Source: Pseudomonadota bacterium
GTDB taxonomy: Bacteria; Pseudomonadota; Alphaproteobacteria; Rickettsiales; SXRF01
NCBI GenBank assembly: GCA_038043465.1
Contig: JBBTBX010000009.1
Coordinates: forward strand, 34,710 to 98,709
DNA: 64,000 nt
Direction of reading: 5' to 3'
Positions 111 to 51,946 of this stretch are shown piece by piece. The translations under genes and the position numbers were made by a program. The number at the start of each line of letters is the position of its first letter. The stretch's first letter is position 1. The notes under the pieces were generated by a model. That model saw nothing but the letters and a program-made list of their open reading frames with translations, was not told the origin of the DNA and made no database searches.

Positions 111-701
111 TTATTCCTTAGATTTCTTTTCAGTTTTAACAGCTTCTTTAGCAGCACTGCTTTTACCTTCTCTGCGGTCAACAATCTCACCAACTGCTTT
201 ACCACGTTTTGTAGCAATAGCACGTGGCGATTTCATGCCTTCAAGAGCATCAAAAGTTGCTTTAAGCATGTTATGAGGATTAGAAGTACCAACTGATTTC
301 GCTACCACATCCTGCACACCGAGGGCTTCAAAAACTGCGCGCATTGGCCCGCCAGCAATGATACCAGTACCAACAGGTGCAGTGCGTATAATCACTTTAC
401 CGGCACCAAAACGACCATATAAATCGTGATGAACAGTGCGACCTTCACGCAGAGGTATACGCATCATGGATTTTTTTGCAGTTTCCAAGGCTTTACGCAT
501 AGCGTCAGATACTTCTTTCGCTTTACCAGAACCGTAACCGACCCGTCCCTTACCGTCGCCAACGACAACAAGAGCAGCAAAGCCGAAACGTCTACCGCCT
601 TTTACCACTTTGGCAACACGGTTTATCGATACTAATTTATCGATCAAATCGCTGCCTTCTTCGCGACCACTTTTCTTTTCATTGCGTTCTGGACGTGCCA
701 T
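111..701 (-). CDS. rpsE: 30S ribosomal protein S5
   Basis: S5 hallmarks [27 protein letters not shown] and [10 protein letters not shown]. Follows rplR as in spc operons. Has a Lys-rich C-terminal tail. Confidence 0.97.
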
Positions 702-740
702 ATTTATTTTCCCAACTCTATTACAAATAATACAAAATTC

Positions 741-1112
741 TTAGAAAGATAACCCAGCTTCACGCGCCGCATCAGCCAAAGCCTTTACGCGCCCATGAAA
801 CAAATACCCACCACGATCAAAAACCACTTCTTTTACGTTGGCTTTTTTAGCGCGCTGAGCTATCAAAGTACCAATAATTTTTGCCACTTCCACTGTAGAA
901 GTAGATTTCGCCTTGCCTTTAACATCCGCATCAAGAGATGAAGCAGCAGCGAGAGTCGTTCCCTTGCTATCATCAATAAGCTGAGCATAAATATGCTTGC
1001 CGGAACGAAACACTGAAAGGCGCACACGATTATTGGTCTGCTTGCGAATCGCGCTACGGACACGTTGCTTGCGACGATCAAATAACGCTTTTGATTTAAC
1101 TGCTTGGCTCAT
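741..1112 (-). CDS. rplR: 50S ribosomal protein L18
   Basis: [18 protein letters not shown] and C-terminal [26 protein letters not shown], plus synteny. Confidence 0.97.
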
Positions 1113-1207
1113 ATTTTTACTAGTATCTCACCTTTCTTACATTTGCAAAGATCCACGACTGCGTGGAGATAACAGGAATCTAAGCAGCACAGCTGCCAGA
1201 TTTACTG

Positions 1208-1744
1208 TTACTTCTTCTTCCCTTCTTTTTTACGTACATACTCACCTTCATAGCGAACACCTTTTCCTTTATATGGCTCAGGTTTCCGCAATGCACGAAT
1301 TTCAGCTGCCACCTGCCCTACCAGCTTTTTATCAAAACCGGATATAGCTACTGATGTTGGTTTTTCACAAACTATGCTAACACCGTCCGGAATGGCAAAT
1401 TTTATTTCATGACTGAAGCCAAGAGCCAGTGTCAGGTAGTTCTTGTCAGCCGCCGCACGGAAACCAACGCCTTGAATCTCAAGCTTAACAACAAAGCCTT
1501 TGGAAACACCTTCAACCATGTTATTAACTTGGTTGCGAGTAGTTCCCCACATAGCGCGGGAACGTTTGTCATCCTTATCCACAGGCAAAATGATAACATT
1601 GCCTCCGGAAATCTCAACCTTTACTTCCGGTGCTAATTTCGCTTTGAGTTCACCCTTGCCACCTTTAACCGCAATCTCACCGGCATCAACTTTAACTGTG
1701 ACACCTGATGGTATTGCAACCGGCTTTTTACCTACACGAGACAT
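1208..1744 (-). CDS. rplF: 50S ribosomal protein L6
   Basis: MSRVGKKPVAIPSGV start and KGKGVRYEGE near the C-terminus. AAGGAG SD at revcomp 1751-1756. Synteny. Confidence 0.97.
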   Translation of the reverse strand: MSRVGKKPVAIPSGVTVKVDAGEIAVKGGKGELKAKLAPEVKVEISGGNVIILPVDKDDKRSRAMWGTTRNQVNNMVEGVSKGFVVKLEIQGVGFRAAADKNYLTLALGFSHEIKFAIPDGVSIVCEKPTSVAISGFDKKLVGQVAAEIRALRKPEPYKGKGVRYEGEYVRKKEGKKK

Positions 1745-1761
1745 TACTTACTCCTTACTTA

Positions 1762-1856
1762 GATAATCCGATTACCCGATTACCCGATAACCAGATTATC
1801 CGTGACATTATAATTTACTTTACTCGATCATCCGATCATCCGACCATCTGATCATC
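1762..1856. repeat. Intercistronic repeat element. A tandem 8-nt array (GATTACCC-like x5, 1762-1801) and a second 8-nt array (CGATCATC-like x4, 1825-1856) flank an AT-rich centre.
   Basis: Read directly from the sequence. A homologous copy lies at 21282-21353 and shares GATTATCCGTGA(c/t)ATTATAA. Confidence 0.85.
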
Positions 1857-1860
1857 TTCC

Positions 1861-2256
1861 TTAGAATACTGAACAAAGAACTTCACCACCAACATTCGCC
1901 TGACGCGCATCAAAATCTGACATTACACCTTTTGATGTAGATAAAATCGCAATACCGAGACCGTTAAAGAATTTCGGCAATTTTGAAATTTCGCAATAAA
2001 CGCGGCGACCAGGCTTAGAAATACAGGTAATTTCCTTAATAACACGCTCACCATCCTGATACTTAAGTTCAATTTCAAACTCCGGTTTCCCATCATTCTC
2101 AGAACTTTTGTAACCGGCGATAAAGCCTTCGTTTTTTAGAACTTCCAACACGTTTCCAAGCAGATTAGTTGCCTGGCAACGAACAACTGCCAAACGAGCA
2201 GCCTGTCCATTACGGATCAGAGACAACATATCAGCAAGGCGATAATTCATAGACAT
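1861..2256 (-). CDS. rpsH: 30S ribosomal protein S8
   Basis: DMLSLIRNG... and C-terminal GGEVLCSVF, plus synteny. Confidence 0.97.
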   Translation of the reverse strand: MSMNYRLADMLSLIRNGQAARLAVVRCQATNLLGNVLEVLKNEGFIAGYKSSENDGKPEFEIELKYQDGERVIKEITCISKPGRRVYCEISKLPKFFNGLGIAILSTSKGVMSDFDARQANVGGEVLCSVF

Positions 2257-2266
2257 AATTATTCTC

Positions 2267-2572
2267 CTACCAGCTTGCCTTGGTTAAGCCCGGAACTTTT
2301 CCGAACGAACCAAGCTCACGCAATTTTATGCGTGAAAGTTTGAATTTACGATACACACCACGTGCGCGACCAGTTAGTTCGCAGCGATTGCGGTGACGGG
2401 TTTTAGCACCATTGCGCGGCAATGCAGAAAGCTTAATCTGTGCTTGTAGACGCTCATCGAAAGGCAGATCACGATCCATAACAACAGCTTTAAGCGCGCC
2501 GCGTTTGTTAGCAAACTTCTTTGCCATTTTCAAACGGCGGTTATTCTTATTTATCGAACTCAATTTAGCCAT
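2267..2572 (-). CDS. rpsN: 30S ribosomal protein S14 (long form)
   Basis: 101 aa with C-terminal [21 protein letters not shown], plus synteny. Confidence 0.96.
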
Positions 2573-2578
2573 AATTTC

Positions 2579-2727
2579 AGTGGTTAGTGGTCGGTGGTCA
2601 GTGGTCAGTGAATTTTCACTGTCAACTTTTCATCTACCAATTTTTTCCACTCCTCCTTATAAGTTACTGTTTAACTACTACCCTAAATCTTTTCTTCACT
2701 AGTCACTGACCGCCAGTCACTAGTCAC
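2579..2727. repeat. Tandem-heptamer-armed element. The left arm (AGTGGTC-like x4, 2579-2610) and right arm (2697-2727) are imperfect reverse complements. The centre carries TTTTTTCCACTCCTCC.
   Basis: Read directly. It fills the whole rplE-rpsN spacer. Its core is shared with the element at 6378-6505. Confidence 0.85.
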
Positions 2728-3353
2728 TACTTAACAAACGGCATATTCATTGCAGCAAGCAAACTCTTTGCTTCCTCGTCAGTTTTCGCAGTGGTGCAGA
2801 TGATAATATCCATACCACGAATCTGATCGATCTTATCATAATTTATCTCTGGAAAAACGATCTGTTCCTTAAGCCCGAGAGCATAGTTGCCACGCCCGTC
2901 AAAGCTCTTATGAGGAACTCCGCGGAAGTCACGAACACGCGGCAGAGCCGTATTAATCAACCTATCCAAAAATTCATACATACGCTGCTTACGCAAAGTC
3001 ACCTTACAGCCAATCGGCAAGCCTTCACGCAATTTAAAACCAGCGATAGCTTTCTTTGATTTAGTAACAAGAGGCTTCTGACCAGCAATCAAGCCAAGCT
3101 CATTAACCGCCGCCTGAATGGTTTTGCTATCATTTACGTTTTCACCAACGCCCATATTGATAACAATCTTATCAAGCTTAGGAACTTGCATCGCGTTCTT
3201 GTAATTGAACTGTTTCTGCATAGCAGAACGCACGTCTTTTTCATATACAGCCTGCAAACGAGGTGTGTAACCACCGGCAGGCTTCTTCGCCGCCTTTTCC
3301 GCTTTAGGTGCTTTCTCAGCTTTTACAGCCTTATTTTCTGTTGCTTTAGCCAT
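2727..3353 (-). CDS. rplE: 50S ribosomal protein L5 with a Lys/Ala-rich N-terminal extension
   Basis: L5 core [14 protein letters not shown]...[16 protein letters not shown], plus synteny. Confidence 0.96.
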
Positions 3354-3667
3354 TATATCTTATCTCCTGAACGCTTGGAAACACGAACCTTGTTGTCTCC
3401 CTCAAATTTATAGCCAGCGCGTGTCGGCTTTCCTGATTTTGCATCAATCAAAGAAACGTTAGACACATGCAGAGAAGCTTCCTTCTCAATGATTCCACCA
3501 GCAGAAGTTTTGCTAGGCTTGGTATGGCGTTTCACCATATTGATGCCACCAACAACAACCCGCGCTTCACTGGTGATAACCTGAGTTATCTTGCCCTTTT
3601 TGCCTTTTTCTTTGCCAGCGATGACAATAACCTCATCACCTTTTTTTACTTTGAATTTCACAGCCAT
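3353..3667 (-). CDS. rplX: 50S ribosomal protein L24
   Basis: [20 protein letters not shown] (KOW motif), plus synteny. Confidence 0.96.
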
Positions 3668-3685
3668 TTCTCAAATTCCTTAAAA

Positions 3686-4054
3686 TTATAATACTTCTGG
3701 TGCCAGAGAGACAATTTTCATAAACTGCTTAGCACGAAGTTCACGAGTAACTGGCCCAAATATACGAGTGCCAATCGGCTCATTCTGCTTAGTAAGAAGC
3801 ACCGCAGCGTTTTTATCAAAGCGGATAGTGCTACCGTCAGCACGGTGTATATCGCGACGAGTGCGCACGATAACAGCACGATGCACCTCACCCTTTTTCA
3901 CCTTGCCACGCGGTATCGCATCTTTAACAGAAACTACAATAATATCGCCCACGCCTGCGAATTTACGTCCTGCTCCGCCTAGAACTTTAATGCACATCAC
4001 CCGACGCGCACCTGAATTGTCAGCCACCTCTAAATTACTTTGTTGTTGTATCAT
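3686..4054 (-). CDS. rplN: 50S ribosomal protein L14
   Basis: [17 protein letters not shown]... and C-terminal SLAPEVL, plus synteny. Confidence 0.98.
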
Positions 4055-4085
4055 ACTTTCCTCATCATTTCCTTAGAGCTGCATC

Positions 4086-4319
4086 TTATTCTTCGTATAT
4101 CACTTGCCAACGCTTAGATTTAGAAATAGGAGCTGACTCCACAATCTGAACCTTATCGCCAACCTTGAACTGGTTTTTCTCATCATGCGCCGCATATTTT
4201 TTAGAGCGGCGAATGGTTTTCTTATATACAGGATGCGAAACACGGCGTTCCACACGCACTGTTACAGTTTTTTCATTCGCATCGCTAACGACAGTTCCTT
4301 GTAGTACACGCCTTGGCAT
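4086..4319 (-). CDS. rpsQ: 30S ribosomal protein S17
   Basis: [22 protein letters not shown], plus synteny. Confidence 0.96.
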
Positions 4320-4322
4320 GAA

Positions 4323-4565
4323 TTATCCCTTCTTATTTTTTTTAGCCACAGCCTTTTTAGGGGCAGCTTTTTTAACATTATTAACGCCTTCGTTCAACAA
4401 AGTTTTTGCCCGAGCAATAGTACGGCGAGCCGCGCGGAATCCCTGCCTGCTTTCCAAAGAACCGGTGGCATCCTGCATCCGCAGGTTAAACTGTTCTTTT
4501 TTAGAATTCAGGATTATTTCCTTCAGTTCTTCTGCAGATTTAGTACGTAATTCAGAAGTTTTCAT
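4323..4565 (-). CDS. rpmC: 50S ribosomal protein L29 with a Lys-rich C-terminal tail
   Basis: ELRTKSAEELKEIILNSKKEQFNLRMQ, plus synteny. Confidence 0.94.
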   Translation of the reverse strand: MKTSELRTKSAEELKEIILNSKKEQFNLRMQDATGSLESRQGFRAARRTIARAKTLLNEGVNNVKKAAPKKAVAKKNKKG

Positions 4566-4567
4566 AA

Positions 4568-4987
4568 TTATTCCCCTCCCTTAACGCGCGAAACGAATTT
4601 GGTTTTGATAGGAAGCTTGGCAGAAGCACGGTCAAACGCTTCACGGGCAACAGCCTCGCTAACACCTTCCACTTCAAACAATATGCGACCAGGAGCAACA
4701 CGTGCTGCCCAGAATTCTACAGACCCCTTACCGCTACCCATACGTACTTCGGCAGGCTTGCGAGTTACCGGCAGGTCTGGAAAAATACGAATCCACATAC
4801 GACCAACGCGCTTTACATGACGGGAAATGGCACGACGGGCAGCTTCAATCTGACGCGCAGTAATACGCTCAGGCTGCATCGCCTTCAAACCATACTCACC
4901 AAAATTCAGGGTAAAGCCACCTTTGGAGGCACCTTTAATCCGCCCTTTATGGGCTTTACGGTATTTAGTTTTTTTAGGACTCATCAT
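4568..4987 (-). CDS. rplP: 50S ribosomal protein L16
   Basis: [15 protein letters not shown] start, plus synteny. Confidence 0.97.
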
Positions 4988-4993
4988 AACTTG

Positions 4994-5686
4994 TTACTCG
5001 TTGCTAGTTGCTAGTATTTCGACAGGAACAACGTCAGCCGCTGCGTCAATCTTCTTTTCTTTACCAAGTATCTCACCTTTGAATACCCATACTTTTACAC
5101 CAATAGTGCCGTAAGCGGTTTCAGAACGAGCGATACCATAATCAATATCCGAACGCAGAGTGTGCAAAGGCACGCGACCTTCACGATACCATTCCATACG
5201 CGCAATTTCAGCACCGCCAAGACGACCGCTGACATTGATACGGATACCAAGTGCGCCAAGACGCAGGCATGATTGCACGGCACGTTTCATAGCACGACGG
5301 AAAGCCACACGCTTTTCTAATTGCTGCGCGATAGACTCAGCAATCAAAGTTGCATCAAGCTCCGGCTTCGGCACCGGCACAATATTAAGATGAACTTCAT
5401 CCTTAGTAAATTTAGCCAGATCCTTCTTGATTTTATCAATATCAGCACCTTTTTTACCAATAACCACACCAGGACGCGCAGTATGAATAGTGATATGCGC
5501 TTTCTTGGTAGGACGCTCGATCACAACCTTGCTTACGCCAGCAGCATCAAGGCTTTTCTTCAAGTAGGCCTGAATTTTATAATCTTCATGCAGCTTGGTG
5601 GCATAATCAGCACCGGCGAACCAACGCGAATCCCAAGTTTTGTTCACGCCAACACGAAAACCAATTGCGTTTACTTTCTGACCCAT
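4994..5686 (-). CDS. rpsC: 30S ribosomal protein S3
   Basis: The canonical start [13 protein letters not shown] is at 5686, just after the rplV stop (5688). The track ORF (to 5716) over-extends into rplV. Confidence 0.95.
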
Positions 5687-5687
5687 A

Positions 5688-6068
5688 TTATGCTTTCTCC
5701 TCTTTTTCACGCACAATCAGCGTCAAATTTGCAAATGGTCTGAATACACGCGCCGATTTACCACGACCACGAGTATGCATACGTTTCATTACCAGATTTT
5801 TCCCAACATACGCTTCTTTAACATAAAGAGAATCAACATTCAGGTTATGGTTATTCTCAGCGTTGGCAATTGCTGACTGCAAAGCTTTTTTTACATCTCC
5901 GGCAATACGCTTGCTGGAAAATGATAGCTGGGTAAGCGCGCCATTCACATCCATTCCACGGATAAGAGCCGCCACAAGGTTAAGCTTCTGTGGACTGATG
6001 CGGATACGGTTGATAACCGCTTTCGCTTCGTTTGGTGCTAATGCACGCTGGGTTGCTTTTTTAGACAT
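5688..6068 (-). CDS. rplV: 50S ribosomal protein L22
   Basis: [22 protein letters not shown], plus synteny. Confidence 0.96.
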
Positions 6069-6084
6069 ATATTATTACCATTCC

Positions 6085-6369
6085 TTATTTCTTAGCTGCA
6101 GTTTTCTTGTCAGCCGCTGTATGACCGTGGAAAGTACGAGTCGGAGCAAATTCACCGAATTTGTGACCAATCATATCTTCGTTAACCGATACAGGGATAA
6201 ATTTCTTGCCATTATAGACACCGAAAGTCAGCCCCACAAACTGCGGCAGGATAGTCGAACGACGTGACCATGTTTTGATAATCTGATTGCGGGTCGCGCC
6301 TCTGGCTCCTTCTGCTTTCTTAAGCAGGTAACCATCAACAAACGGACCTTTCCAAACTGAACGTGCCAT
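6085..6369 (-). CDS. rpsS: 30S ribosomal protein S19
   Basis: [12 protein letters not shown]... and [13 protein letters not shown], plus synteny. Confidence 0.98.
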
Positions 6370-6377
6370 AATATTTT

Positions 6378-6505
6378 AGTGGTCAGTGGCTAGTGGCTAG
6401 TGGCTAGTGCAACAAAACACTAACTACAATCTCTATTCCATTTTTTCCACTCCTCCTCAAAATTAAAATTACACTTAACTAACCGCTAACCGCTAGCCGC
6501 CAGCC
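6378..6505. repeat. Tandem-heptamer-armed element. Left arm (AGTGGCT-like x4) at 6378-6409 and right arm (AACCGCT/AGCCGCC) at 6475-6505. The centre carries TTTTTTCCACTCCTCC.
   Basis: Read directly. It fills the rplB-rpsS spacer. The arms are about 6/7 complementary per unit. Confidence 0.85.
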
Positions 6506-7336
6506 TTACTTACCCTGATGTCTGCTACGAAGAATGAGTTTATTCTTCTTCTTTTTTGAACGTGTCTTTGTACCTTTAGTTCCTTTACCCCACGGCGTAA
6601 CCGGATGACGACCACCAGAAGTACGTCCTTCACCACCACCATGCGGATGGTCAACAGGATTCATCGCCACACCGCGAACGCATGGACGAACGCCAAGCCA
6701 ACGGCTGCGACCTGCTTTACCGATAACCGCATTTTGGTTGTCCGGATTAGAAACCGCACCGATAGTAGCCAGGCAATCAGAACGAATCAGGCGAAGTTCA
6801 CCGGAACGTAGTTTAACCTGAGCATAACCAGCATCTTTACCAACAAGCTGTACATAAGTTCCGGCAGCGCGGGCAAGCTGCCCACCTTTGCCTTCCTTCA
6901 TTTCAACGTTATGGATAATAGTTCCAACCGGAATATTTTTCAGCGGAATGGTGTTACCCGGTTTAATGTCAGCTCTTTCTGAAGATACCACAACATCGCC
7001 AACCGCAAGACGCTGCGGAGCAATGATATAAGCCAGCTCACCATCAGAATATTTTATCAGCGCAATAAATGAAGTGCGGTTCGGATCATATTCCAAACGC
7101 TCAACAGTTGCAGCAACATCAAACTTACGGCGTTTGAAATCAATAATACGATATGACTGCTTGTGACCACCACCCACGCGGAACGCAGTCAAACGACCAT
7201 AATTATTACGACCACCACTTTTATTTTTTCCTTCAGTCAGTTTTTTAACTGGCTTACCTTTATACAATTCACTGCGGTCAACAATAACCAATTGACGCTG
7301 AGCAGGAGTTGTAGGTTTAAAACTTTTGAGAGCCAT
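6506..7336 (-). CDS. rplB: 50S ribosomal protein L2
   Basis: GGGHKQSYR and HPHGGGEGR motifs, plus synteny. Confidence 0.98.
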
Positions 7337-7337
7337 A

Positions 7338-7664
7338 TTAGCTTACTCCCCCATCTAGGTTTATTGACTGGCCGGCAGCAAGAGTTACGATTGCTTTCTT
7401 AGTATCGTTCTGCTTGCCTTTTACACCACGGAATAACTTTACTTTTCCAAGGCGGCGCAATGTATTCACATTAGCAACTTTTACCTTAAATAAAGCTTCA
7501 ACCGCTGATTTTATTTCAGCTTTGGTTGATTCCAGACGCACATTGAACATAACCTTATTGAACTCAGAAACCATGGTTGATTTCTCGGTGATAACCGGAG
7601 AAACGATGGTATCGTAGTGATAAGCGCGCGCTTCCGTTTTTTCTACTTTTTTAGCTTTTTTCAT
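7338..7664 (-). CDS. rplW: 50S ribosomal protein L23
   Basis: [13 protein letters not shown], plus synteny. Confidence 0.95.
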
Positions 7665-8281
7665 TTAAGCCTCTCTTCAAGATGCTTCACCGCATCCTTA
7701 GTCAAAATCAACTGTTTGTGACGCAGAATATCATAAACATTGATACCCTGTTGCGGGAGCACATCCACAAATTTTATATTGCGGGCGGCTTTAGCAAAAT
7801 TTTCATTCACCTGCGTGCCATCAATGAATAACGGAGCATCCCAACCGTTCTTTGCAAAAATCTCAACCATAGCTTTGGTTTTAGCTTCTTTCACATTGAC
7901 ATTATCAACAACAAACAAAGTACCATCCGCCTGTTTGGAAGAAAGGGCAACACGCATAGCAAGTTTGCGAACTTTCTTAGGAAGATCGATTGCATGGCTG
8001 CGAACCACCGGTCCAAAAATAGTAGCACCACCGCGCATCTGTGCAGAACGCATAGAACCCTGACGGGCATTACCGGAACCTTTTTGCTTGAAAGGCTTTT
8101 TACCAGTACCACTTATTTCGCTGATAGTCTTGGTTTTATGAGTACCAGACTGAGCCTTTGCGCGCTGCCACTGCACCATACGGTGCAATATGTCCTTGCG
8201 AACCGGAGCAGCAAAGATGCTATCAGATAATTCAATATCACCAGCAGCTTTATTCTCGATTGTTACAACTTTTACTTTCAT
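7661..8281 (-). CDS. rplD: 50S ribosomal protein L4
   Basis: [19 protein letters not shown], plus synteny. Confidence 0.96.
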
Positions 8282-8293
8282 AATTTCTCCTAA

Positions 8294-8325
8294 ATCCTGT
8301 GGGCGACAAAGTCGCAGCGCAGGAT
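8294..8325 (-). other. GC-rich interrupted hairpin in the rplC-rplD spacer
   Basis: ATCCTG (8294-8299) pairs with CAGGAT (8320-8325). GCGAC (8303-8307) pairs with GTCGC (8311-8315). Confidence 0.6.
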
Positions 8326-8335
8326 CTTAATCCTT

Positions 8336-9073
8336 TTACTCAGTCTTTTTATCTTCAACAGATCCTGTGCTCTCGCTTTCGCTCGCCACAGGATTATTAA
8401 CTTTACGTACACCAGCTGGAAATGGAGCAGCAGGATGAGAGCCTTTTTTGCAAGCATCTTTAACCAGAACAAAACCATTCTCAGCACCTGGAACCGCGCC
8501 ACGCACCATGATAAAACCACGCTCTTCATCCACAGAAATAACCTGAAGATTCTGAGTAGTTACACGAACCGTTCCCATGTGACCGGCCATTTTTTTGCCT
8601 TTGAATACACGACCCGGATCCTGACGTTGTCCGGTAGAGCCATGCGAACGATGCGCAACAGAAACGCCATGCGTTGCTTCCAGACCGGCAAAGTTATAAC
8701 GCTTCATAACACCGGCGAAGCCCTTACCAACCGAGTTTCCAACCACATCAACATATTGCCCTGGAACAAAATGGCTGGCAACAATTTCAGTACCTGGTTC
8801 AATCAAAGCTTTTTCTTCAACACGGAACTCAACGAGTTTGCGTTTCGGTTCTACTTTCGCTTTAGCGTAATGCCCACGCAAAGCCTTAGAAACATTTTTT
8901 ACCTTAGCTTTGCCAACACCAAGCTGAACAGCTGTATAACCATCTTTAGCAACGGTTTTATTGGCAACAACCTGGCAATTATCAACGTGCAACACGGTAA
9001 CCGGTGTTTCCACACCTTCTTCCGTGTACACACTGGTCATACCCAGTTTTTTAGCAATTAATCCTGTACGCAT
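8336..9073 (-). CDS. rplC: 50S ribosomal protein L3
   Basis: The canonical start [13 protein letters not shown] is at 9073, directly after the rpsJ stop (9075). The track ORF over-extends to 9118. Confidence 0.96.
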
Positions 9074-9074
9074 A

Positions 9075-9392
9075 TTATGCTGCCTCCGCCTTAATCTTAA
9101 TATCAACACCAGAAGCAAGATCTAATTTCATCAAAGCATCCACGGTTTGCGGAGTTGGATCAAGAATGTCAATCAAACGTTTGTGCGTACGGATTTCAAA
9201 CTGTTCACGCGATTTCTTATCGATATGCGGAGAACGGTTAACAGTAAAACGTGCGATACGCAGTGGCAGAGGAATCGGCCCTCTAACTTGCGCGCCGGTG
9301 CGTTTTGCAGTTGACACAATCTCAGCTGTCGATTGATCAAGAACGCGATGATCAAACGCTTTCAGCCAGATACGAATTTTTTGGTTTTGCAT
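9075..9392 (-). CDS. rpsJ: 30S ribosomal protein S10
   Basis: [14 protein letters not shown]... and [16 protein letters not shown], plus synteny. Confidence 0.97.
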
Positions 9393-9398
9393 GTCTAA

Positions 9399-10589
9399 TT
9401 ACTCCAGAATCTTAGCAACGACACCGGCACCGATGGTGCGGCCACCTTCACGGATAGCGAAGCGCAAGCCTTCTTCCATCGCGATTGGTGAGATTAGAGT
9501 CGCTTCGATGCTCACGTTATCGCCAGGCATGATCATTTCAACGCCGTCAGGCAGTTTGATAGATCCGGTCACGTCAGTGGTACGGAAATAGAATTGCGGG
9601 CGGTAATTGCTGAAGAACGGGGTATGGCGACCACCTTCATCCTTGTTAAGAACGTAAATCTCAGCAGTGAACTTAGTATGCGGGGTGATCGAACCTGGTT
9701 TGCAGAGTACTTGACCACGCTCAACTTCCTCGCGCTTGGTGCCACGAAGAAGAATACCAACGTTATCACCGGCACGACCTTCATCAAGCAGCTTACGGAA
9801 CATTTCAACGCCGGTGCATGTGGTTTTCTGGGTAGCACGCAAGCCTACAATCTCGATTTCCTCACCAACCTTGACGATACCGCGTTCAACACGACCGGTA
9901 ACTACAGTACCACGACCGGAGATCGAGAACACGTCCTCAACCGGCATAATGAATGGTTTATCAATAGGGCGCTCAGGCTGCGGGATTGATTTATCAACCG
10001 CTTCCATAAGCTTAAGGATAGCTTCGCGACCAAGAGCCGGATTCTTATCTTCCAGCGCGCACAGAGCTGAACCATGGATGATAGGAATGGTATCGCCCGG
10101 GAATTTATATTTGCTGAGAAGCTCGCGCACTTCCATCTCAACCAGCTCAAGCAATTCAGGATCATCAACCATGTCGCACTTGTTCAGGAACACAACCAAT
10201 GCCGGAACGCCAACCTGACGGGCAAGAAGGATATGTTCGCGAGTCTGTGGCATAGGACCGTCAGCAGCTGATACTACAAGTATCGCGCCATCCATCTGCG
10301 CCGCACCGGTGATCATGTTCTTAACATAATCGGCGTGACCTGGGCAATCAACGTGCGCATAGTGGCGGTTCTCAGTTTCATATTCAACGTGCGCGGTGTT
10401 AATCGTGATACCACGCGCCTTCTCTTCCGGAGCAGCGTCGATCTTGTCATACGCCGTATATTTAGCACGACCAGACTCAGCCAAAACCTTCGTGATCGCA
10501 GCAGTCAAACTCGTCTTGCCGTGATCAACATGACCTATCGTTCCGATATTACAGTGAGGTTTATTCCTCTCAAATTTCTCTTTTGCCAT
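9399..10589 (-). CDS. tuf: Elongation factor Tu
   Basis: [16 protein letters not shown] and NKCD GTPase motifs. 396 aa. Confidence 0.99.
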
Positions 10590-10601
10590 TTTGACTACTC
10601 C

Positions 10602-12677
10602 TTAAGCTACTTTCTTTTTAATTTCTTCTGCAACAGCCGATGGAACCTGATCATAATGATCAAATTGCATTGAATATTGCGCACGACCTTGCGACATCGA
10701 ACGTAAGGTATTTACATAACCAAACATTGAAGCCAGCGGAACCATCGCATCAACAACACGAGCGTTACCGCGAGAATCCATGCCTGTTACCTGACCGCGA
10801 CGTGATGACAAATCACCAATCACATCACCCATGTAATCTTCCGGCGTTACAACTTCCACTTTCATTATTGGCTCAAGCAAAACCGGCGAAGCTTTCGGCA
10901 TACCTTCACGGAACGAAGCACGGGCAGCAATTTCGAACGCCAGCGCGGAAGAATCTACATCATGATATGCGCCGTCAACCAGAGTTGCTTTGAAATCGAT
11001 AGTTGGGAAGCCAGCTACCACACCATTACTGATAGAAGCATCGAGACCTTTTTCAACACCTGGGATATATTCTTTTGGAACAGATCCGCCGGTGATTTTT
11101 GCTTCGAATACGAAACCAGAACCTGGTGGCAGCGGCTCGAAATCAATGATAACGCGCGCAAACTGACCAGAACCACCCGATTGTTTTTTATGAGTGTAAT
11201 CAACCTGAAATTTCTTGGTGATAGTTTCGCGATAAGCAACCTGCGGCGCGCCAACGTTAGCTTCTACCTTGAATTCGCGTTTCATGCGATCAACGATAAT
11301 TTCCAAATGTAATTCGCCCATACCTTTAAGAATGGTTTGACCGGTTTCTTCATTAGTAGAAATACGCAAACTAGGATCTTCCGAAGCAAGACGTGATAAA
11401 GCCATACCCATCTTCTCTTGATCCGCCTTAGTTTTAGGCTCAACGGCAACTTCAATAACTGGTTCTGGGAATTCCATACGCTCAAGAATTACCTGAGCAT
11501 CAACATCACATAAAGTATCGCCGGTAGTGGTATTTTTAAGACCAGCAAGCGCAACAATGTCACCGGCATAAACTTCTTTTACATCTTCACGCGAATTTGC
11601 ATGCATAAGCAACATGCGGCCTACGCGTTCACGATTATCTTTCACTGTGTTCTGCACATAAGAACCGGCTTCCAATTTACCGGAATACACGCGAACGAAA
11701 GTAAGAGAACCAACGAATGGATCAGTCATAATCTTGAAAGCAAGACCAGAAAACTTCTCATCATCCCTAGCAAAACGCTTAATTTCAGCATCAGTTTTAA
11801 CATCAATCGCAGTAACCGAGCCAATATCAACCGGGCTAGGAAGGAAATCCACCACCGCATCTAACATTGGCTGAACACCTTTGTTCTTAAAGGCTGCTCC
11901 ATTTAATACCGGTACAAATTTGAAAGCGACAGTGCCTTTGCGGATGCAAGATTTTAATTCATCAATAGTTGGTTCTTCACCACCAAGATATTTTTCCATA
12001 ACCGCATCATCCATTTCAACTGCGGTTTCCAACATCTTCGTGCGGGCAGCTTTTGCTGCATCCTGAAGTTCAGAGCGGATAGGAAGCTCATCAAATTTAG
12101 CACCAAGCTCATCGCCTTTCCAGACGATTTCTTTCATTTTAATCAGATCTACAATGCCCTCATATTTGTCTTCGCTACCTATTGGAAGCTGAACAACCAA
12201 AGGAACAGTTCCTAGGCGATCGATCATCATATCCACGCAGCGCTGGAAATTAGCACCGATACGATCCATTTTATTCACAAAACAAATACGCGGCACACTA
12301 TATTTATCAGCCTGACGCCATACGGTTTCTGATTGTGGCTCAACACCAGCAACCGAGTCAAACACGGTCACAGCACCATCGAGAACACGCATTGAACGCT
12401 CTACTTCAATGGTAAAATCCACGTGACCAGGTGTATCAATGATGTTAATGCGGTGATCATTCCAATAGCAGGTGGTAGCCGCTGAAGTAATAGTAATACC
12501 GCGCTCCTGTTCCTGCTCCATCCAATCCATGGTCGCAGCACCTTCGTGCACTTCGCCGATTTTATGGGATTTGCCGGTATAATATAAAATACGTTCAGTC
12601 GTAGTGGTCTTACCTGCGTCAATATGCGCGCAGATGCCGATGTTACGATAGTCACTGAGTGGCGTTTTACGAGTCAT
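10602..12677 (-). CDS. fusA: Elongation factor G
   Basis: [23 protein letters not shown] and NKMD motifs. 691 aa. str-operon position. Confidence 0.99.
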
Positions 12678-12687
12678 AGTTTAAAAT

Positions 12688-12826
12688 GAATTGAGGAATT
12701 GAGGAATTGAAGAATTGAGGAAATATAAATTTCACCCTACCTTCATAACCACCCTACCTTTGCATCATCTCCCTTTCTTTTTTATCTTTATTCTTCAATT
12801 CTTAGGTTCACCAGTTCTTCAATTCC
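12688..12826. repeat. Tandem-octamer-armed element. Left arm (GAATTGAG x4) at 12688-12722 and a complementary degenerate right arm at 12791-12826. The centre has CACCCTACCTT x2.
   Basis: Read directly. It fills the rpsG-fusA spacer. Confidence 0.85.
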
Positions 12827-12833
12827 GCTAATC

Positions 12834-13322: not shown

Positions 13323-13694
13323 TTATTTCGGACGTTTCGCGCCGTAAGCCGAACGCGATTGTTTACGGTTTTTCACACCTTGTGTATCAAGAGTACCACG
13401 GATAATGTGGTAGCGAACACCTGGCAAATCCTTTACACGACCACCACGGATCAACACAACACTATGCTCCTGAAGGTTATGACCTTCACCCGGGATGTAT
13501 CCAAACACTTCAAAGCCATTGGTCAAACGAATACGTGCTACCTTACGCAAAGCCGAATTCGGCTTCTTCGGGGTCACAGTCTTCACCTGAGTACATACAC
13601 CGCGCTTCTGCGGGCAGGCTTTCAAAGCTGGAACCTTATTACGTTTAGCCACAGAGCGACGAGGACTGCGGACCAACTGATTAATTGTTGGCAT
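13323..13694 (-). CDS. rpsL: 30S ribosomal protein S12
   Basis: MPTINQLVR and [10 protein letters not shown] motifs. Confidence 0.99.
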
Positions 13695-19009: not shown

Positions 19010-19813
19010 ATGCATCGCCTTTTTATCAATATCCTGCTAGCTTCAATGTTGATGACTTCTCCCGCTATATCCGCAGAAAACCTTACTCCCATAAGTGAAA
19101 AATTATATTATGAGGCTGACTGGTCAGGGGTAAATTTTGGCAAAATCGGCATTGAAATTGACCAACAGGCAAATAAGGCAGATGTTACCTGCGATATAAG
19201 ATCTTCAGGAATAATGGCATTGTTTGTAAAGCATTCCAGCCACACAACTTTAACCGCCACTGGAAATAATTACGTTTATCCTGACCGGACTTATGAAAGC
19301 AGATATTTCACCCGCAAAAAAGCGCGGCATGTAAAACTTACTTATGAAGATAATAAAATAAGTGAGCAGATTGTTGAACCACCGGATAATCGTGATAAGC
19401 GTCCGGCTGTGCCTGAAGATGATATAAATTCTGCATATGACTTGATGAGTTTTTTGTTACAGATGCGTAGCGAGATTACTCTCGCACAAAAATCCGGAAA
19501 AATGGAATTTAGCATAAATTCCTATGATGGTCGCAGGCTTACACAAGGCGATTTCAAAATACTGGGAAAGAAAACCATTAAAATAGCTGGAAAAAAACAT
19601 GAAACTTTAATGATAAACGCCAGACGCAAGTTACTTGCCGGCTATACTAAAAGCGAAGAGGATGATTATAACCCTAAAGAACCTAGCATGACGATCTACT
19701 TCAGCAATGATGAAAAACTGCTCCCTCTGCGCATGGAAATTCCGTTCTTCATGCAGAATGTTAGTGCAACCCTGATTAAGCGTTGTGAAAAAGCCGGAGA
19801 GTGCTTGCTTTAG
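19010..19813 (+). CDS. Secreted DUF3108-like protein
   Basis: Signal peptide (MHRLFINILLASMLMTSPAISA). The overall pattern YEADWSGVNFGKIGIE resembles DUF3108. The family call is made from memory. Confidence 0.6.
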   Translation: MHRLFINILLASMLMTSPAISAENLTPISEKLYYEADWSGVNFGKIGIEIDQQANKADVTCDIRSSGIMALFVKHSSHTTLTATGNNYVYPDRTYESRYFTRKKARHVKLTYEDNKISEQIVEPPDNRDKRPAVPEDDINSAYDLMSFLLQMRSEITLAQKSGKMEFSINSYDGRRLTQGDFKILGKKTIKIAGKKHETLMINARRKLLAGYTKSEEDDYNPKEPSMTIYFSNDEKLLPLRMEIPFFMQNVSATLIKRCEKAGECLL

Positions 19814-19882
19814 TAAGGCTTAAGGCTTAAGGCTTGAGGCTTAAGCCATAAGCCCTAAGCCCTAAGCCTTGAGCCTTGAGCC
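19814..19882. terminator. Heptamer-repeat hairpin between convergent genes. The left arm (TAAGGCT x4) meets the right arm (AAGCC[CT]T x5) at the apex 19842/19843.
   Basis: Read directly. It abuts the stop at 19811-19813 and overlaps the stop at 19882-19884. There is no loop spacer. Confidence 0.7.
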
Positions 19883-20352
19883 TACTCTTCTTCCCAATTC
19901 GGCGAAACAACCGGCTCACCATCCTTCTTCGGTGGCTCATAATTTGCCGTTAGAAATGCCGGCAGTGAACTTACATTAGTAGAAATTGCGTCATCTTCTT
20001 CAACAACTGCTTCCGGCGCAGCTTCCGCTACTTGCTGTTCTTGTGGTACATGTACACGCTGTGGACGAGAAGCGTTATCTTCGGCAATCATACGGAAACA
20101 ATGGTCAGCGTGCTGAAAATAGTTTTCAGCAAGAACACGATCCCCAGATGCCAGAGCATCACGCGCCTGAGCCAGATATTTCTCACGCATCGCTCCATAA
20201 TTTTTACGCGGACGACCGCCATTACTATGGCTGTGTCCCTGATTGCTACCACCGCCACCATGCGAGAAACGTGGCTTATTACGTTGCTGGTTATTGCTGC
20301 CGCTATAGCTACCGCTACCTTGCGCTGATGATTTTTTTCTTGGGTAATTCAC
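19882..20352 (-). CDS. DUF4167 domain protein
   Basis: Gly/Asn/Gln-rich N-terminus followed by YLAQARDALASGDRVLAENYFQHADHCFRMI, which is typical of alphaproteobacterial DUF4167. Confidence 0.8.
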   Translation of the reverse strand: MNYPRKKSSAQGSGSYSGSNNQQRNKPRFSHGGGGSNQGHSHSNGGRPRKNYGAMREKYLAQARDALASGDRVLAENYFQHADHCFRMIAEDNASRPQRVHVPQEQQVAEAAPEAVVEEDDAISTNVSSLPAFLTANYEPPKKDGEPVVSPNWEEE

Positions 20353-27828: not shown

Positions 27829-28860
27829 TTACGCTTTTTTTCGCATTCCAAGGCAGGACTCTGACTGCGCTATAAGCTCGTTCACTATGTTTTGCATCGG
27901 CTCTATCTTGCTTACCATGCCGACACTCTGCCCCGCCATCAGCGAACCATTTTCCACGTCACCCTCAATAACTGCTTTCCTGAGCGCGCCTGCCCAGAAA
28001 TGTTCTATCTTAAGCTGCGCGTCTTTCTTATCAACGCCGCCTGCCCGAAACTCTCTTATAACTTCATGCTGACAACGGGTAAAAGCATCGGTTGCCTTAT
28101 TCAGCAACGCACGCACCGGAATCACTGGAAAATCAGGATCAACCTGTACTGACGGCATGGCATCCCTCGCCTGCGCCCGGATAAAAGCCTCTTTGAATTT
28201 GGGATGAGCAATAGATTCTTCTGCACATACAAAACGTGTGCCGAGCTGCACACCAGACGCACCCATTTCCAGATAGCTGACAATTGCTTCGCCACGACCT
28301 ATGCCACCGGCTACAAAAACCGGAACTTCTTTTATATTCGGCAAAATCTCCTGCGCCAGCACCGATGTCGAAACCGGACCGATATGCCCACCCGCTTCCG
28401 CCCCTTCAATCACCAGTGCGTCAACCCCGCTCCTGACTAATTTGCGACCAATTATCGCTGACGGCGCAAAGGCAATAACCTTGCCGCCCGATTCTTTGAT
28501 GGATTTTATGGTATCGCCGCTGGGAATCCCACCCGCCAGCACCACATGCGTAACTTTCTGGCGTTTGCAGACTTCCACCAATTCCGCAAGCTGCGGGTGC
28601 ATGATAATAAGATTTACGCCAAACGGTTTGCTGGTGAGTTTTTTAGTCTCAATGATTTCTTTTTCCAACAAATCAGGCGGCATTGAACCGCAGGCAATTA
28701 CCCCAAACGCTCCAGCGTTAGAAAGTGCTGCAACCAGATTACGCTCGGAAACCCAAGACATCGCCCCGCCCATAATGGCATATTGCGTGCCGAGGAATTC
28801 TGTGCCTCGCTGCCAGAGCGAGTTGAGTTGTGAGTGCTGAGTGCTGAGTGAGGTTGTCAT
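27829..28860 (-). CDS. Nitronate monooxygenase / FabK-like FMN oxidoreductase
   Basis: NMO-family pattern: YAIMGGAMSWVS, VLAGGIPSG, GAEAGGH and VAGGIGRGE. The first ~15 codons lie in a heptamer repeat. Confidence 0.85.
   Translation of the reverse strand: MTTSLSTQHSQLNSLWQRGTEFLGTQYAIMGGAMSWVSERNLVAALSNAGAFGVIACGSMPPDLLEKEIIETKKLTSKPFGVNLIIMHPQLAELVEVCKRQKVTHVVLAGGIPSGDTIKSIKESGGKVIAFAPSAIIGRKLVRSGVDALVIEGAEAGGHIGPVSTSVLAQEILPNIKEVPVFVAGGIGRGEAIVSYLEMGASGVQLGTRFVCAEESIAHPKFKEAFIRAQARDAMPSVQVDPDFPVIPVRALLNKATDAFTRCQHEVIREFRAGGVDKKDAQLKIEHFWAGALRKAVIEGDVENGSLMAGQSVGMVSKIEPMQNIVNELIAQSESCLGMRKKA
28817..28853. repeat. GAGTGCT-type heptamer array inside the 5' end of the NMO-like CDS
   Basis: gagttgagttgtgagtgctgagtgctgagtgagg. 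On the coding strand it encodes SLSTQHSQLNSL. Confidence 0.85.
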
Positions 28861-30090: not shown

Positions 30091-30130
30091 TTAGTGATTA
30101 GTGATTAGTGGATAAGTGATTAGTGATTAG
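30091..30130. repeat. TAGTGAT heptamer array (about 5.5 units) directly upstream of the lysC start
   Basis: Read directly. No obvious complementary arm follows. An ACTAT-T8-ATAGT mini-hairpin lies at 30131-30147. Confidence 0.8.
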
Positions 30131-32363: not shown

Positions 32364-32378
32364 TTTGTCATGCCGCAT

Positions 32379-33269
32379 TTATTGCGGCATCTGGTCTTTA
32401 TTATTGCCAGACCCCGCAATAAATGCGGGGTGACAGAACTCTCTATCATGTTGTAAATTTGGCAATTTACCACGCATTTTTGCCACTTCGCTTAAATCAA
32501 TATCAGCACTTATGATACCTTCTTCCGTTCCGCCATCAGCAATGATTTTTCCCCACGGGTCTACTACTAGCGAATGACCATAGGTTTTCCGCCCGCCAGC
32601 ATGGGTTCCGGTTTGCGCTGGAGCAATGATAAAACATCCGGTTTCGATGGCGCGGGCGCGCAGCAAAACATGCCAGTGCGCTTCTCCAGTTACCTGCGTA
32701 AAAGCAGCTGGTACGGCGATGATACCCGCCCCTGCCTTGGCTAGCGCCCGATAAAGCTGGGGAAAGCGGACATCATAACAAATCGTCATACCCAGTTTTG
32801 CCCAAGGTGTAGGAGCAATGACAGCCTTGTCACCAGCAATAATTTTAGAAGATTCCCGATAAACCTGCCCATCACCAACCTCAACATCAAACAGGTGAAT
32901 TTTATCATAATGGGACATAATTTCGCCCTCAGGGTTAAAAAGCAGCGAACGGTTATAGGTGAGAGGCGAGTGAGTTTTGAGTGCTGAGTGCTGAGTGCTG
33001 AGTATAGCAACGCTGCCTATTAGCAGCCAAATATTGTTTTTACGCGCCATTTCCGCTGAGGCTTTAACTGCCGGATGCTCATGCTGCTTATAAAAAACCC
33101 GGTCTTTTCCACTTTCTTCTATTAAAAATGTGTTTTCGGGAGTAGCGACCAGCCCTGCCCCCATGGCGGTCGCACGCTCCACCATACCCCTAACTTTAAC
33201 AATATTTTCCAGCAAATCCGCGCTACTGGTAAGTTGCAAGCACGCTATCTTTAACATATTATTTACCAA
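32379..33269 (-). CDS. Carbon-nitrogen hydrolase (nitrilase superfamily)
   Basis: E-K-C triad context: TPENTF, YDKIHLFDV and GMTICYDVRFP. Carries an in-frame heptamer-repeat insert. Confidence 0.88.
   Translation of the reverse strand: MVNNMLKIACLQLTSSADLLENIVKVRGMVERATAMGAGLVATPENTFLIEESGKDRVFYKQHEHPAVKASAEMARKNNIWLLIGSVAILSTQHSALKTHSPLTYNRSLLFNPEGEIMSHYDKIHLFDVEVGDGQVYRESSKIIAGDKAVIAPTPWAKLGMTICYDVRFPQLYRALAKAGAGIIAVPAAFTQVTGEAHWHVLLRARAIETGCFIIAPAQTGTHAGGRKTYGHSLVVDPWGKIIADGGTEEGIISADIDLSEVAKMRGKLPNLQHDREFCHPAFIAGSGNNKDQMPQ
32958..33008. repeat. GAGTGCT heptamer array in frame inside the C-N hydrolase CDS
   Basis: ...gagtgagttttgagtgctgagtgctgagtgctgagt... It encodes ILSTQHSALKTHSPLT. 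Confidence 0.85.
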
Positions 33270-40189: not shown

Positions 40190-40242
40190 AAAGGTAAGAA
40201 TTACCCCAAATTATGTAACTATGCAATAATGGGATTGAACAT

Positions 40243-40635: not shown

Positions 40636-40658
40636 TAACCACAAATATTTTTAACAGC

Positions 40659-40874
40659 ATGATTTCCAGCAACATAAAATATTCTTGCAAGTACTACAGC
40701 GTAGGCTTCTTTGTTTTTATTGAATCAAACAATTCTGATTCAACGAAGCAATTTTCTATGGAACCAATCATGGAAGTGGACACTGAAGCGCAGGGAATAG
40801 AGCTAATTAACTGGTTATCAGACAATCATTTTGTAGCACGGCAAATTGCAAATATGGCAAATGATAATTACTAA
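40659..40874 (+). CDS. Doubtful small ORF
   Basis: 71-aa ORF in very AT-rich DNA. No SD or motif seen. Confidence 0.25.
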   Translation: MISSNIKYSCKYYSVGFFVFIESNNSDSTKQFSMEPIMEVDTEAQGIELINWLSDNHFVARQIANMANDNY

Positions 40875-40977
40875 CGCCGATAAATTAAATTATTTTTTTA
40901 TTTAACTTGATTTTATAATTTATAATTAAACATAATATAAATCTAAAGTTGTAGCAATATTAGCGTATATTATCTTG

Positions 40978-41748: not shown

Positions 41749-41780
41749 GTGACAATACTTTTATTGTAAATAATGAGCAG

Positions 41781-51823: not shown

Positions 51824-51836
51824 ATATAATCTCCAA

Positions 51837-51945
51837 GTGGGCGTGGTAGGCGTGATAATCGTGGTGGGCGTGGCGAAGTAATTTATCAATACCAATCATT
51901 TACGACTATCACGTCCATCACGCCTACCACGATAACCACGATTAT
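51837..51945. repeat. 9-nt-period tandem-repeat-armed element (CGTGGTAGG-like arms)
   Basis: A 15-nt perfect complement: CGTGGTAGGCGTGAT (51842-51856) pairs with ATCACGCCTACCACG (51917-51931). Lies between the lpdA stop and the pilin-like gene start. Confidence 0.85.
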
Positions 51946-51946
51946 A

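Follow-up and report, generated by a model that had tools for sequence, protein, structure and literature searches.

What are the repeat-built insertions that separate essential cistrons of a ribosomal protein (r-protein) operon, and how can the genes behind them still be translated? This question is raised by the 64-kb stretch of DNA analysed here (contig JBBTBX010000009.1; hereafter the window), which covers part of the genome of an uncultured alphaproteobacterium and has a GC content of about 44%. The str-S10-spc ribosomal superoperon lies on its minus strand, from rpsL (13323-13694) to rpsE (111-701). Four of its spacers, rpsH-rplF, rplE-rpsN, rplB-rpsS and rpsG-fusA, hold array elements, which we named E1, E2, E3 and E4, respectively; two further array elements in the window were named X1 and X2 (Table 1). 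All descriptions are given in the mRNA (minus) sense unless stated otherwise. We found that these elements are very probably paired convergent arrays of short period, forming intercistronic hairpins that resemble REP sequences, gained recently and remodelled by slippage and replacement.

The window and all of its relatives are contigs of metagenome-assembled genomes (MAGs) or of metagenomes. The RplB sequence of the window recurs unchanged on contigs of MAGs named 'Rickettsiales bacterium' (GCA_964405605.1, GCA_040080715.1 and GCA_021733565.1 among them), and several ENA and Logan assemblies have it too. The closest genome found was the MAG KLAP47 (hereafter L001), whose RplB is 97% identical at a nucleotide identity of about 81%. 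RplB identity to the window is 88% in the loci L153 and L335 and 76% in the alphaproteobacterial MAG L004. A set of 11 conspecific contigs from NCBI, ENA, Logan and JGI samples was available for strain comparison, in which L202, L204 and L188 differ from the window, and 80 alphaproteobacterial loci served as the reference for junction lengths. The metagenomic origin of the window and its relatives might suggest an assembly or binning artefact. The elements, however, are present in 11 independent assemblies (NCBI, ENA, Logan, JGI) with small natural differences, and similar arrays occur in isolate genomes, among them those of Photobacterium rosenbergii and Cupriavidus basilensis. This explanation is effectively refuted.

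Short-period arrays and their arms

The window contains 19 arrays with a period of 7-9 and no fewer than 2.8 copies, whereas 30 dinucleotide shuffles gave 0.77 on average and 3 at most. A tandem-repeat finder (TRF) placed an array of 7- or 8-nt units at either end of all four spacers, as a preliminary description of this DNA had proposed. That description also held that the unit sequence varies while the architecture stays, and this is what we observed: the array units in the window are AGTGGTC, AGTGGCT, GAATTGAG, GATTACCC, TAAGGCT and GGCGTGGTA, none of which contains a G3 tract. The four junctions had been described as expanded. This is true of rpsH-rplF, rplE-rpsN and rplB-rpsS, the median lengths of which are 11-21 nt across the 80 alphaproteobacterial loci. 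The rpsG-fusA spacer, on the other hand, is often long in these loci (median 54 nt, 90th percentile 115 nt), and at this junction only the content of the spacer is unusual, not its length.

In E2, E3 and E4, the two arms are imperfect reverse complements of each other, in agreement with the same description (74-77% over 34-35 nt by ungapped extension; 74% over 34 nt in E2 and 77% over 35 nt in E4). E1 has quasi-palindromic units (GAT-N-ATC) instead, and its arms are not simple complements. In the sense strand, its minimum free energy structure (-31.4) is a pair of local hairpins, at z -4.7 as against -0.8 for the opposite strand. Had no further copies been found, and had the arms been no better than shuffled controls, the preliminary description would have lost its ground. 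Further copies do occur, both in the window and among its relatives. The arm-arm duplex energies gave z-scores of -4 to -9 against arm shuffles in 10 of 12 elements, on both strands. Across E2, E3 and E4 the sense duplex z was -4.1 to -6.3, with E2 at -6.3 and E4 at -4.1 (-6.4 in the antisense). The stems comprise 16-37 pairs, with mismatches recurring every 6-7 bp; that of E3 has 24 pairs.

The elements are not REP, ERIC or RPE repeats, as had been anticipated, nor a known structured leader: Rfam covariance models gave no gathering-score match in the window and none in the spacers even at E <= 1, the one weak match at that threshold being unrelated and inside rplF. The intron model gave no match at the elements, which lie between protein-coding cistrons. 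Counts of internal promoters and intrinsic terminators in the window equalled the shuffle expectation; within the elements, only two weak plus-strand matches were found, both in E1.

Translation signals and stop/start geometry

The free energy of the anti-Shine-Dalgarno duplex was calculated for the 23 genes of the operon. It ranged from -2.5 to -11.8 kcal/mol except in rpsN (+0.4), rpsS (+0.7) and fusA (+1.7). These three genes without a Shine-Dalgarno (SD) sequence are exactly those behind E2, E3 and E4; the chance that these should be the three weakest of 23 is 1 in 1771. A fourth gene without an SD starts at 30086, behind a solitary array at 30091 (duplex energy +1.8). In all four cases, rpsN, rpsS, fusA and the gene at 30086, the 3' array ends a few nt before the start codon and displaces the SD. 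The gene at 30086 is aspartokinase-like (MALIVQKFGGTSVG...), and its array ends 4 nt ahead of the ATG and has no partner arm.

The position of the stems relative to the stop and start codons is narrowly defined. The stem begins 0-7 nt past the stop codon and, in 9 of 11 elements, ends 10-13 nt ahead of the start codon; in E3 these distances are 0 and 11 nt and in E4 0 and 10 nt. With both arrays so close to the two codons, folding would bring stop and start together.

The centre of the elements had been described as rich in AT and pyrimidines. This holds for the plus strand, on which the loop reads CCACTCCTCCT, an anti-SD-like sequence; on the mRNA strand the loop is rich in purines and nearly free of C. 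The purine fraction on the mRNA strand is 0.68-0.83 in 10 of 12 alphaproteobacterial elements and 0.73-0.79 in E2-E4, and the loop of E4 contains an 11-nt direct repeat, AAGGTAGGGTG. Given the symmetry of the arms, the composition of the loop is the only mark of polarity, and it always runs along transcription. The loop core, which includes a perfect SD (either UAAGGAGG or a sequence close to it), is identical at 27 of 27 positions between the window and L153, against an identity of 0.35, that is saturation, at fourfold-degenerate sites. This identity reflects either selection or recent transfer.

Two other candidate signals were rejected. The mini open reading frame (ORF) AUG GAA UAG after the SD of the loop is present in E3 and in L153 and L335, and missing from E2 and L004. 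An array of stop codons, in which a stop-bearing 7-nt unit closes all three frames before the start, is not general, as stop codons are missing from the 3' arms of both E4 and X2.

Gain and remodelling of the elements

Comparison with the closest relatives showed filled and empty sites. L001 covers three of the four junctions, and its rplB-rpsS, rplE-rpsN and rpsH-rplF spacers are 15, 11 and 36 nt long, each with an ordinary SD and no element. Other relatives have spacers of 8-16 nt with an SD; at rplE-rpsN, L001, L153 and L002 have 8-11 nt with an SD. The filled and empty sites revealed no target-site duplication at any junction, the elements running from stop codon to start codon.

Within the species, E3 is present in 11 of 11 contigs. 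L202 and L204 have exactly one GGGTAATC unit (8 nt) fewer in E1, in keeping with the 'slippery' nature that had been predicted for the arrays. In L204 and L188 the 5' arm and the left part of the loop of E2 are replaced, with flanks that are 100% identical. It is well supported that the elements arose in this lineage once it had separated from the nearest sequenced species, and that they have been changed by slippage of units and by segmental replacement.

Two scans were made with the loop core. A scan of metagenomes with a 24-nt core yielded just one further conspecific contig. A scan of genome contigs with a 17-mer was unspecific (at least 120 matches, almost all by chance) and was given up as a probe, though it brought up L153 and L188; its matches doubled as an accidental random sample.

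Homologous copies and distribution across phyla

E2 and E3 share the loop core AGGAGGAGTGGAAAAAAT and 3' arms of the form CCACTRR. The element of E3 is also found at rplB-rpsS in L153 and L335, and a homologous one occupies that junction in L004. E2, E3 and these elements are homologous to one another; their arm units differ and complementarity is kept. RNAalifold showed double (compensatory) changes in 5 of 25 pairs of the homologous elements. L004 carries six elements of 128-145 nt within 6.3 kb, two of which share arms, and the 5' unit of E1 (GGATGATC) recurs in its rplW-rplB element.

Similar hairpins were also found outside the Alphaproteobacteria. In the Chloroflexia MAG DASVQO010000194.1 (L269; 58% GC), the spc operon (692-6844) has nine heptamer-array hairpins in 7 kb, each followed by SD and ATG. 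Six of the nine share AT-rich (AATTCTT)n/(AAGAATT)n arms around unrelated loops. An Acidobacteriaceae locus (L315) has seven hairpins in 8 kb, and the r-protein operon of a Blastocatellia locus (L333) has several.

A scan with (CACTRRC)3CACT gave at least 120 loci, with arrays of CCACTGA, CCACTAG or CCACTAA units, where about 0.07 would be expected by chance. The loci listed span at least eight phyla: Acidobacteriota, Chloroflexota, Planctomycetota, Bacteroidota, Verrucomicrobiota, Cyanobacteria, Proteobacteria and Firmicutes. Among the matches listed, 35 (strict) to 47 (loose) arrays have a (YYAGTGG)n partner at most 300 nt upstream, and none has the two in the opposite order. The loop length of the paired arrays forms a continuum of 13-245 nt, and array-rich genomes carry many different units. 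The S10-spc cluster holds 3 of the 120 CCACTRR loci listed, about 0.5 being expected if genomes of about 5 Mb are assumed. The strict order of the arms across phyla goes beyond the preliminary description, as does the repeated occurrence of such elements in the r-protein operons of phyla that are unrelated.

An absolute rule by which the G-rich arm comes first was rejected, as it holds in only 52 of 63 pairs; the order CAGT before ACTG fits better. The orientation of solitary CCACTRR arrays gave no clear signal besides an excess of G-sense arrays after the ends of ORFs (37/79 versus 19/79), a count for which the ORF heuristics are noisy in MAGs of high GC content. By eye only, the non-stop variant CCACTGG seems rarer among the matches listed.

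These copies bear on the possibility that the elements are transposable elements of the miniature inverted-repeat type (MITEs), the terminal inverted repeats of which would be tandem transposase-binding units, mobilised in trans. The arms are indeed inverted terminal repeats (74-86% complementary), E2 and E3 share core and 3' arm at two junctions, arms are shared between two elements of L004 and among six junctions of L269 with different loops, and a homologous element occurs patchily in three genera. However, target-site duplications are missing from every junction, the ends of the elements match stop and start codons rather than a target motif, and the length of the loops is continuous. At least five unrelated units in a 64-kb window would need as many transposases; no transposase turned up, though none was searched for. 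We consider a MITE origin very unlikely.

Relation to known repeat systems

It is worth noting that the repeat class itself is not new, since paired convergent heptamer arrays and stems built of heptamers have already been published (PMC4692102, PMC4476775, PMC4679880). It is well supported that the elements belong in kind with the paired arrays of Xanthomonas, the STRR and TAACTGA arrays and the P6b stem of Nostoc. CCACTGA-type arrays are not named in the literature searched. What is new here is that three essential genes have lost their SD, that the stems keep a fixed position relative to stop and start codons, and that an SD is conserved in the loop.

The closest precedent is in Xanthomonas campestris and X. 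axonopodis, in which convergent pairs of (GGGAATC)n heptamers capable of forming stem-loops occur at 70-75 per genome with unknown function (Rehm et al. 2015, PMC4692102). These arrays show a strong intergenic bias and are separated by a mean of 28 nt from the ORF on their 5' side, with the G-rich array close behind that ORF and the C-rich strand upstream of ORFs, and their length and sequence vary between close species (PMC4692102). The window shares with them the tandem 7-nt arrays (E2, E3 and X1; the period is 8 in E1 and E4 and 9 in X2) and the close convergent pairing (E2, E3, E4, X1 and X2). Whereas one unit, GGGANTN, with G-tracts capable of forming a G-quadruplex, dominates the genome in Xanthomonas, at least five unrelated units without a G3 tract are found here in 64 kb. 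The replacement of the SD, the stop/start geometry and the clustering in r-protein operons have not been reported for Xanthomonas.

TAACTGA arrays of marine Beggiatoaceae, cyanobacteria and Bacteroidetes overlap the place where a ribosome binding site would be expected, with the SD kept in only about 10% of the repeat-containing spacers (MacGregor 2015, PMC4679880). They also occur at internal junctions of r-protein operons, upstream of fusA, L3 and S4, and their sets are direct in 169 cases and inverted in one (PMC4679880). The elements resemble them in the 'forward' array a few nt upstream of the start codon, in the spread across phyla and in the ACTG/ACTRR core that the TAACTGA units share with the CCACTGA and CCACTAG arms; the solitary array before the aspartokinase-like gene is itself an arrangement of the TAACTGA type. 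Unlike the TAACTGA arrays, almost all of which are solitary and direct, the elements pair their array with a complementary one upstream across a loop of 55-85 nt, and the units are different. No array in the window has the TAACTGA unit or the STRR units CCCCAGT, TTGGTCA and CAACAGT; CCACTGA shares only ACTGA.

In Nostoc, the P6b stem of the group I intron of tRNA-Leu(UAA) carries heptamer motifs, TDNGATT or NNTGAGT, on both sides, with 7-nt indels on one or both of them, and the whole region can be replaced by another class of repeat (PMC4476775). Translational roles have been suggested for Nostoc repeats without a test (bioRxiv 10.1101/2022.06.06.494920). The elements have the same build, with complementary arrays as the sides of a stem and a change in length by a whole unit, as in the 8-nt indel between strains, and arrays of the NNTGAGT type (TGAGTGC) are also present in the window, at 28831 and 32978. 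The Nostoc stem, in contrast, is inside a self-splicing intron and is unrelated to stop and start codons. 

A single conserved unit of the REP type was not found: the units differ, and only E2 and E3 share a core. REP, BIME and REPIN sequences are non-coding palindromes, intercistronic or 3'-proximal and patchy in distribution, that affect the stability of mRNA and, close to a stop codon, translation. While each REP family has one conserved sequence of 20-40 nt in hundreds of copies mobilised by RAYT (Y1) transposases, the tandem units here are specific to the element. We know of no link between RAYT and array-armed hairpins.

The preliminary description suggested that the elements are sites of processing or stability, that is, RNase III sites or barriers to 3' exonucleases that would partition and stabilise the polycistronic mRNA. 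The sites of the T7 early region, the rplL-rpoB site of Escherichia coli and the stabilising REP sequences are analogues. Stems of 22-37 pairs directly after stop codons would suit such a role. X1 has a fold energy of -47 to -48 kcal/mol, with z about -6 whichever strand is folded. It takes up exactly the 68 nt that separate two convergent stop codons (19811-19813 and 19882-19884), like a 3'-end hairpin. The G-sense arrays that follow ORF ends and the distance of the Xanthomonas repeats from the 5' ORF (PMC4692102) point the same way. The helix, however, is broken by the periodic mismatches, there is no excess of terminator-like U-tracts, and cleavage would strand rpsS, rpsN and fusA, which lack an SD, on mRNAs without an evident site of ribosome entry. 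Processing or stabilisation seems an improbable function.

A possible role in translational coupling

The r-protein operons depend on translational coupling, and a ribosome at termination reaches about 12-15 nt past the stop codon on its 3' side. We propose that the fold of the elements keeps translation of the downstream cistron coupled to that of the upstream one across the insertion, a function to which we would give a little less than an even chance. The 5' array just past the stop codon and the complementary 3' array just before the start codon would juxtapose both codons at the base of an imperfect stem of about 25-35 pairs. The C/A-rich 3' array might stand in for the SD region as an SD-independent leader, over which the 5' array would act as a lid. 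A ribosome terminating on the upstream cistron would then melt the base of the stem and free the leader and the start codon, so that downstream translation would stay coupled 1:1 to upstream translation over a spacer of 115-156 nt. The purine-rich loop, poor in C, may avoid competing pairing and possibly Rho loading as well, and the conserved perfect SD in the loop may hold ribosomal subunits on standby. Such a geometry of stop and start would explain why r-protein operons, highly expressed and translationally coupled as they are, tolerate the insertions and are even enriched in them. The preliminary description had considered a device for decoupling; the geometry and the loss of the SD point to coupling being kept instead.

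There are analogies of function only in the ribosome shunting of the cauliflower mosaic virus 35S RNA, in termination-reinitiation and in bacterial coupling by the melting of long-range structure. As in the viral shunt, a stop codon just before and a start codon just after a long stem would be adjacent in space; bypass of the stem by bacterial ribosomes is hypothetical.

Several observations weigh against this proposal and against the hairpin on which it is built. Coupling, SD-independent initiation and the melting of the stem are all steps that we infer. The replacement of the SD is not general: an SD is kept after the 3' arm in many elements, namely those of L269, four in L004, X2 and E1, in the last of which AAGGAG follows the 3' array. 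The perfect SD of the loop lies 72-92 nt upstream of the start codon. The purine-rich, C-poor loop, considered as a general trait, was rejected, since it is limited to the alphaproteobacterial elements and missing from the cross-phylum set. Neither E1 nor the rplW-rplB element of L004 forms an arm-to-arm stem. The few point changes between strains in the arms of E3 are uncompensated and weaken the stem, and compensatory changes were sought among the strains without success. The covariation term of RNAalifold is slightly unfavourable (+1.44).

The mismatches between the arms give no support to an RNA helix either. Those tabulated for E2 (2579-2727) had been described as transitions only, which is exact (9 of 9; arms at 2579-2728); over 11 elements, however, there are 48 transitions and 15 transversions, a ratio that fits normal mutational bias. 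An RNA wobble signature was rejected, the 20 G.U mismatches of the sense strand not exceeding the 28 A.C mismatches. The pattern of transitions is therefore not evidence for an RNA helix.

Long hairpins had also been expected. The arm duplexes do beat shuffles, but the whole spacers fold barely better in the sense strand than dinucleotide shuffles (z -2.1, -2.1 and 0.0 for E2, E3 and E4, respectively), and the antisense strand does better (z -4.1 to -4.9 for E2-E4). This would suit a role at the level of DNA, as cruciform or slipped structures that affect supercoiling or the replication of the DNA, or a role through antisense RNAs whose CU-rich loops resemble an anti-SD. The anti-SD-like loop of the plus strand accords with this idea, and the symmetric arms pair, and the rule of arm order holds, on both strands. 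On the other side, the elements contain no promoter-like sites on the plus strand besides the two weak matches in E1, the orientation of the loop tracks the direction of transcription, the stop/start geometry is a property of the mRNA, and E1 folds only in the sense strand. A DNA-level or antisense role is highly improbable.

Many of the same observations would be expected if the elements were neutral or selfish by-products, in which hairpins and replication slippage ratchet the arms longer in situ, without function, wherever expression is unbroken. Rapid turnover, with a nearest species that has no elements, the unit indel between strains, the uncompensated substitutions, the ordinary transition bias with no wobble preference on the sense strand and the idiosyncratic unit sequences are all in line with this explanation, as is the fact that other palindromes (RPE-like sequences and plain hairpins) colonise junctions in the clade. 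It does not readily account for a loop core conserved beside saturated fourfold sites, for purine-rich loops oriented uniformly in 10 of 12 elements, for the narrow distance from stem end to start codon, for the strict topology (35-47 pairs of one order versus none among the matches listed) or for the recurrence in r-protein operons of three phyla. Moreover, three essential genes without an SD must still be translated efficiently. We regard a neutral origin as rather unlikely, though it retains appreciable weight.

The proposal of coupling could be widened to a pan-bacterial device, in which array-armed hairpins give SD-independent translational coupling. The C/A-rich array 4-13 nt before the start codon would be a landing leader, and the lid would be opened only by a terminating upstream ribosome. 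The order of CAGT then ACTG, the spread of CCACTRR over more than 8 phyla and the clusters seen in r-protein operons (Alphaproteobacteria, Chloroflexota, Acidobacteriota, Beggiatoaceae) would all reflect a function at the RNA level, with the SD of the loop as a standby or tethering site. In this general form the proposal is unlikely.

Other repeats in the window

The coordinates of the elements and of the other features are collected in Table 1. X2 folds with -45.3 kcal/mol and 36 long-range pairs, and on its 3' side an SD, GGAG, precedes the ATG of a prepilin-like gene.

Table 1. Positions of array elements, their arms and loop cores, and other spacer insertions in the window
Feature	Position	Strand	Description
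E1, rpsH-rplF spacer	1745..1860	-	116 nt; arrays by TRF and sequence
E1 5' array	1825-1856	-	(GGATGATC)n; TRF, period 8
E1 3' array	1768-1802	-	(GGGTAATC/GGATTATC)n; TRF, period 8
E2, rplE-rpsN element	2573..2729	-	spacer 2573-2726 (154 nt); first unit takes in the rplE stop codon TAG
E2 arrays	2577-2610 and 2696-2729	-	TRF, period 7
E2 5' arm	2695-2729	-	(AGTGACT)n
E2 3' arm	2577-2612	-	(CCACTGA)n
E2 loop core	2638-2658	-	AAGGAGGAGTGGAAAAAATTG
E3, rplB-rpsS spacer	6370..6505	-	136 nt
E3 arrays	6377-6409 and 6479-6500	-	TRF, period 7
E3 5' arm	6477-6505	-	(GCGGYTA)n
E3 3' arm	6377-6411	-	(CCACTAG)n
E3 loop core	6438-6458	-	GAGGAGGAGTGGAAAAAATGGAATAGAG; match of the 21-nt search pattern; holds SD and AUG GAA UAG
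E4, rpsG-fusA spacer	12678..12833	-	156 nt
E4 arrays	12688-12722 and 12790-12825	-	TRF, period 8
E4 5' arm	12790-12833	-	(GAATTGAA)n-like
E4 3' arm	12688-12722	-	(CCTCAATT)n
X1	19814..19881	.	(TAAGGCT)n/(TAAGCCY)n hairpin without centre; TRF, 10 copies, period 7
X2	51824..51946	-	9-nt units; 5' arm (CGTGGTAGG)n, 3' arm (CCACGCCTA)n
Solitary array of 3'-arm type	30091..30130	-	(TCACTAA)5.6; TRF
rplF-rplR insertion	1113..1207	-	95 nt; two ordinary small hairpins without arrays; spacer 0 nt in L001
rplC-rplD expansion	8282-8335		54 nt; ordinary small hairpins without arrays; spacer 15 nt in L001

Another class of palindrome, RPE- or MITE-like in appearance, was seen at 32366-32435, 44318-44471 and 45495-45603 of the window, with ends of the form TGTCATKCC...GGNATGACA or CTCGTCATTGCGA...TCGCAATGACAAG. 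An 80-nt copy fills the rpsJ-rplC junction of L335, a contig read here as its reverse complement. Heptamer triplets (21 nt) also occur in frame inside coding sequences, recalling the in-frame RPE insertions of Rickettsia. One, at 28831-28850, lies at the N-terminus of the ORF 27829-28860; another, at 55742-55761, forms with a partner at about 55808-55825 an inverted pair in a linker of a 422-residue ORF resembling dihydrolipoamide acyltransferase. An (AG)14.5 tract at 60969-60997, near the start of the ORF 60937-61794, could be prone to slippage. The GC content falls to 0.38-0.39 at 40001-44000 and 56001-60000, against about 0.44 elsewhere in the window.

Significance

Heptamer repeats have been on record in bacteria since 1990, as STRRs, LSSRs, TAACTGA and GGGAATC repeats, and none of them has an accepted function. 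The locus described here offers clean material for a test: the operons are essential and stoichiometric, the SD sequences of the genes for S14, S19 and EF-G are replaced, and filled and empty sites are found in near relatives. If the model of coupling is true, it would explain how r-protein operons can tolerate long insertions and would give the whole class of repeats a function. If it fails, the loci would still record how long stems are quickly built by slippage within essential operons.

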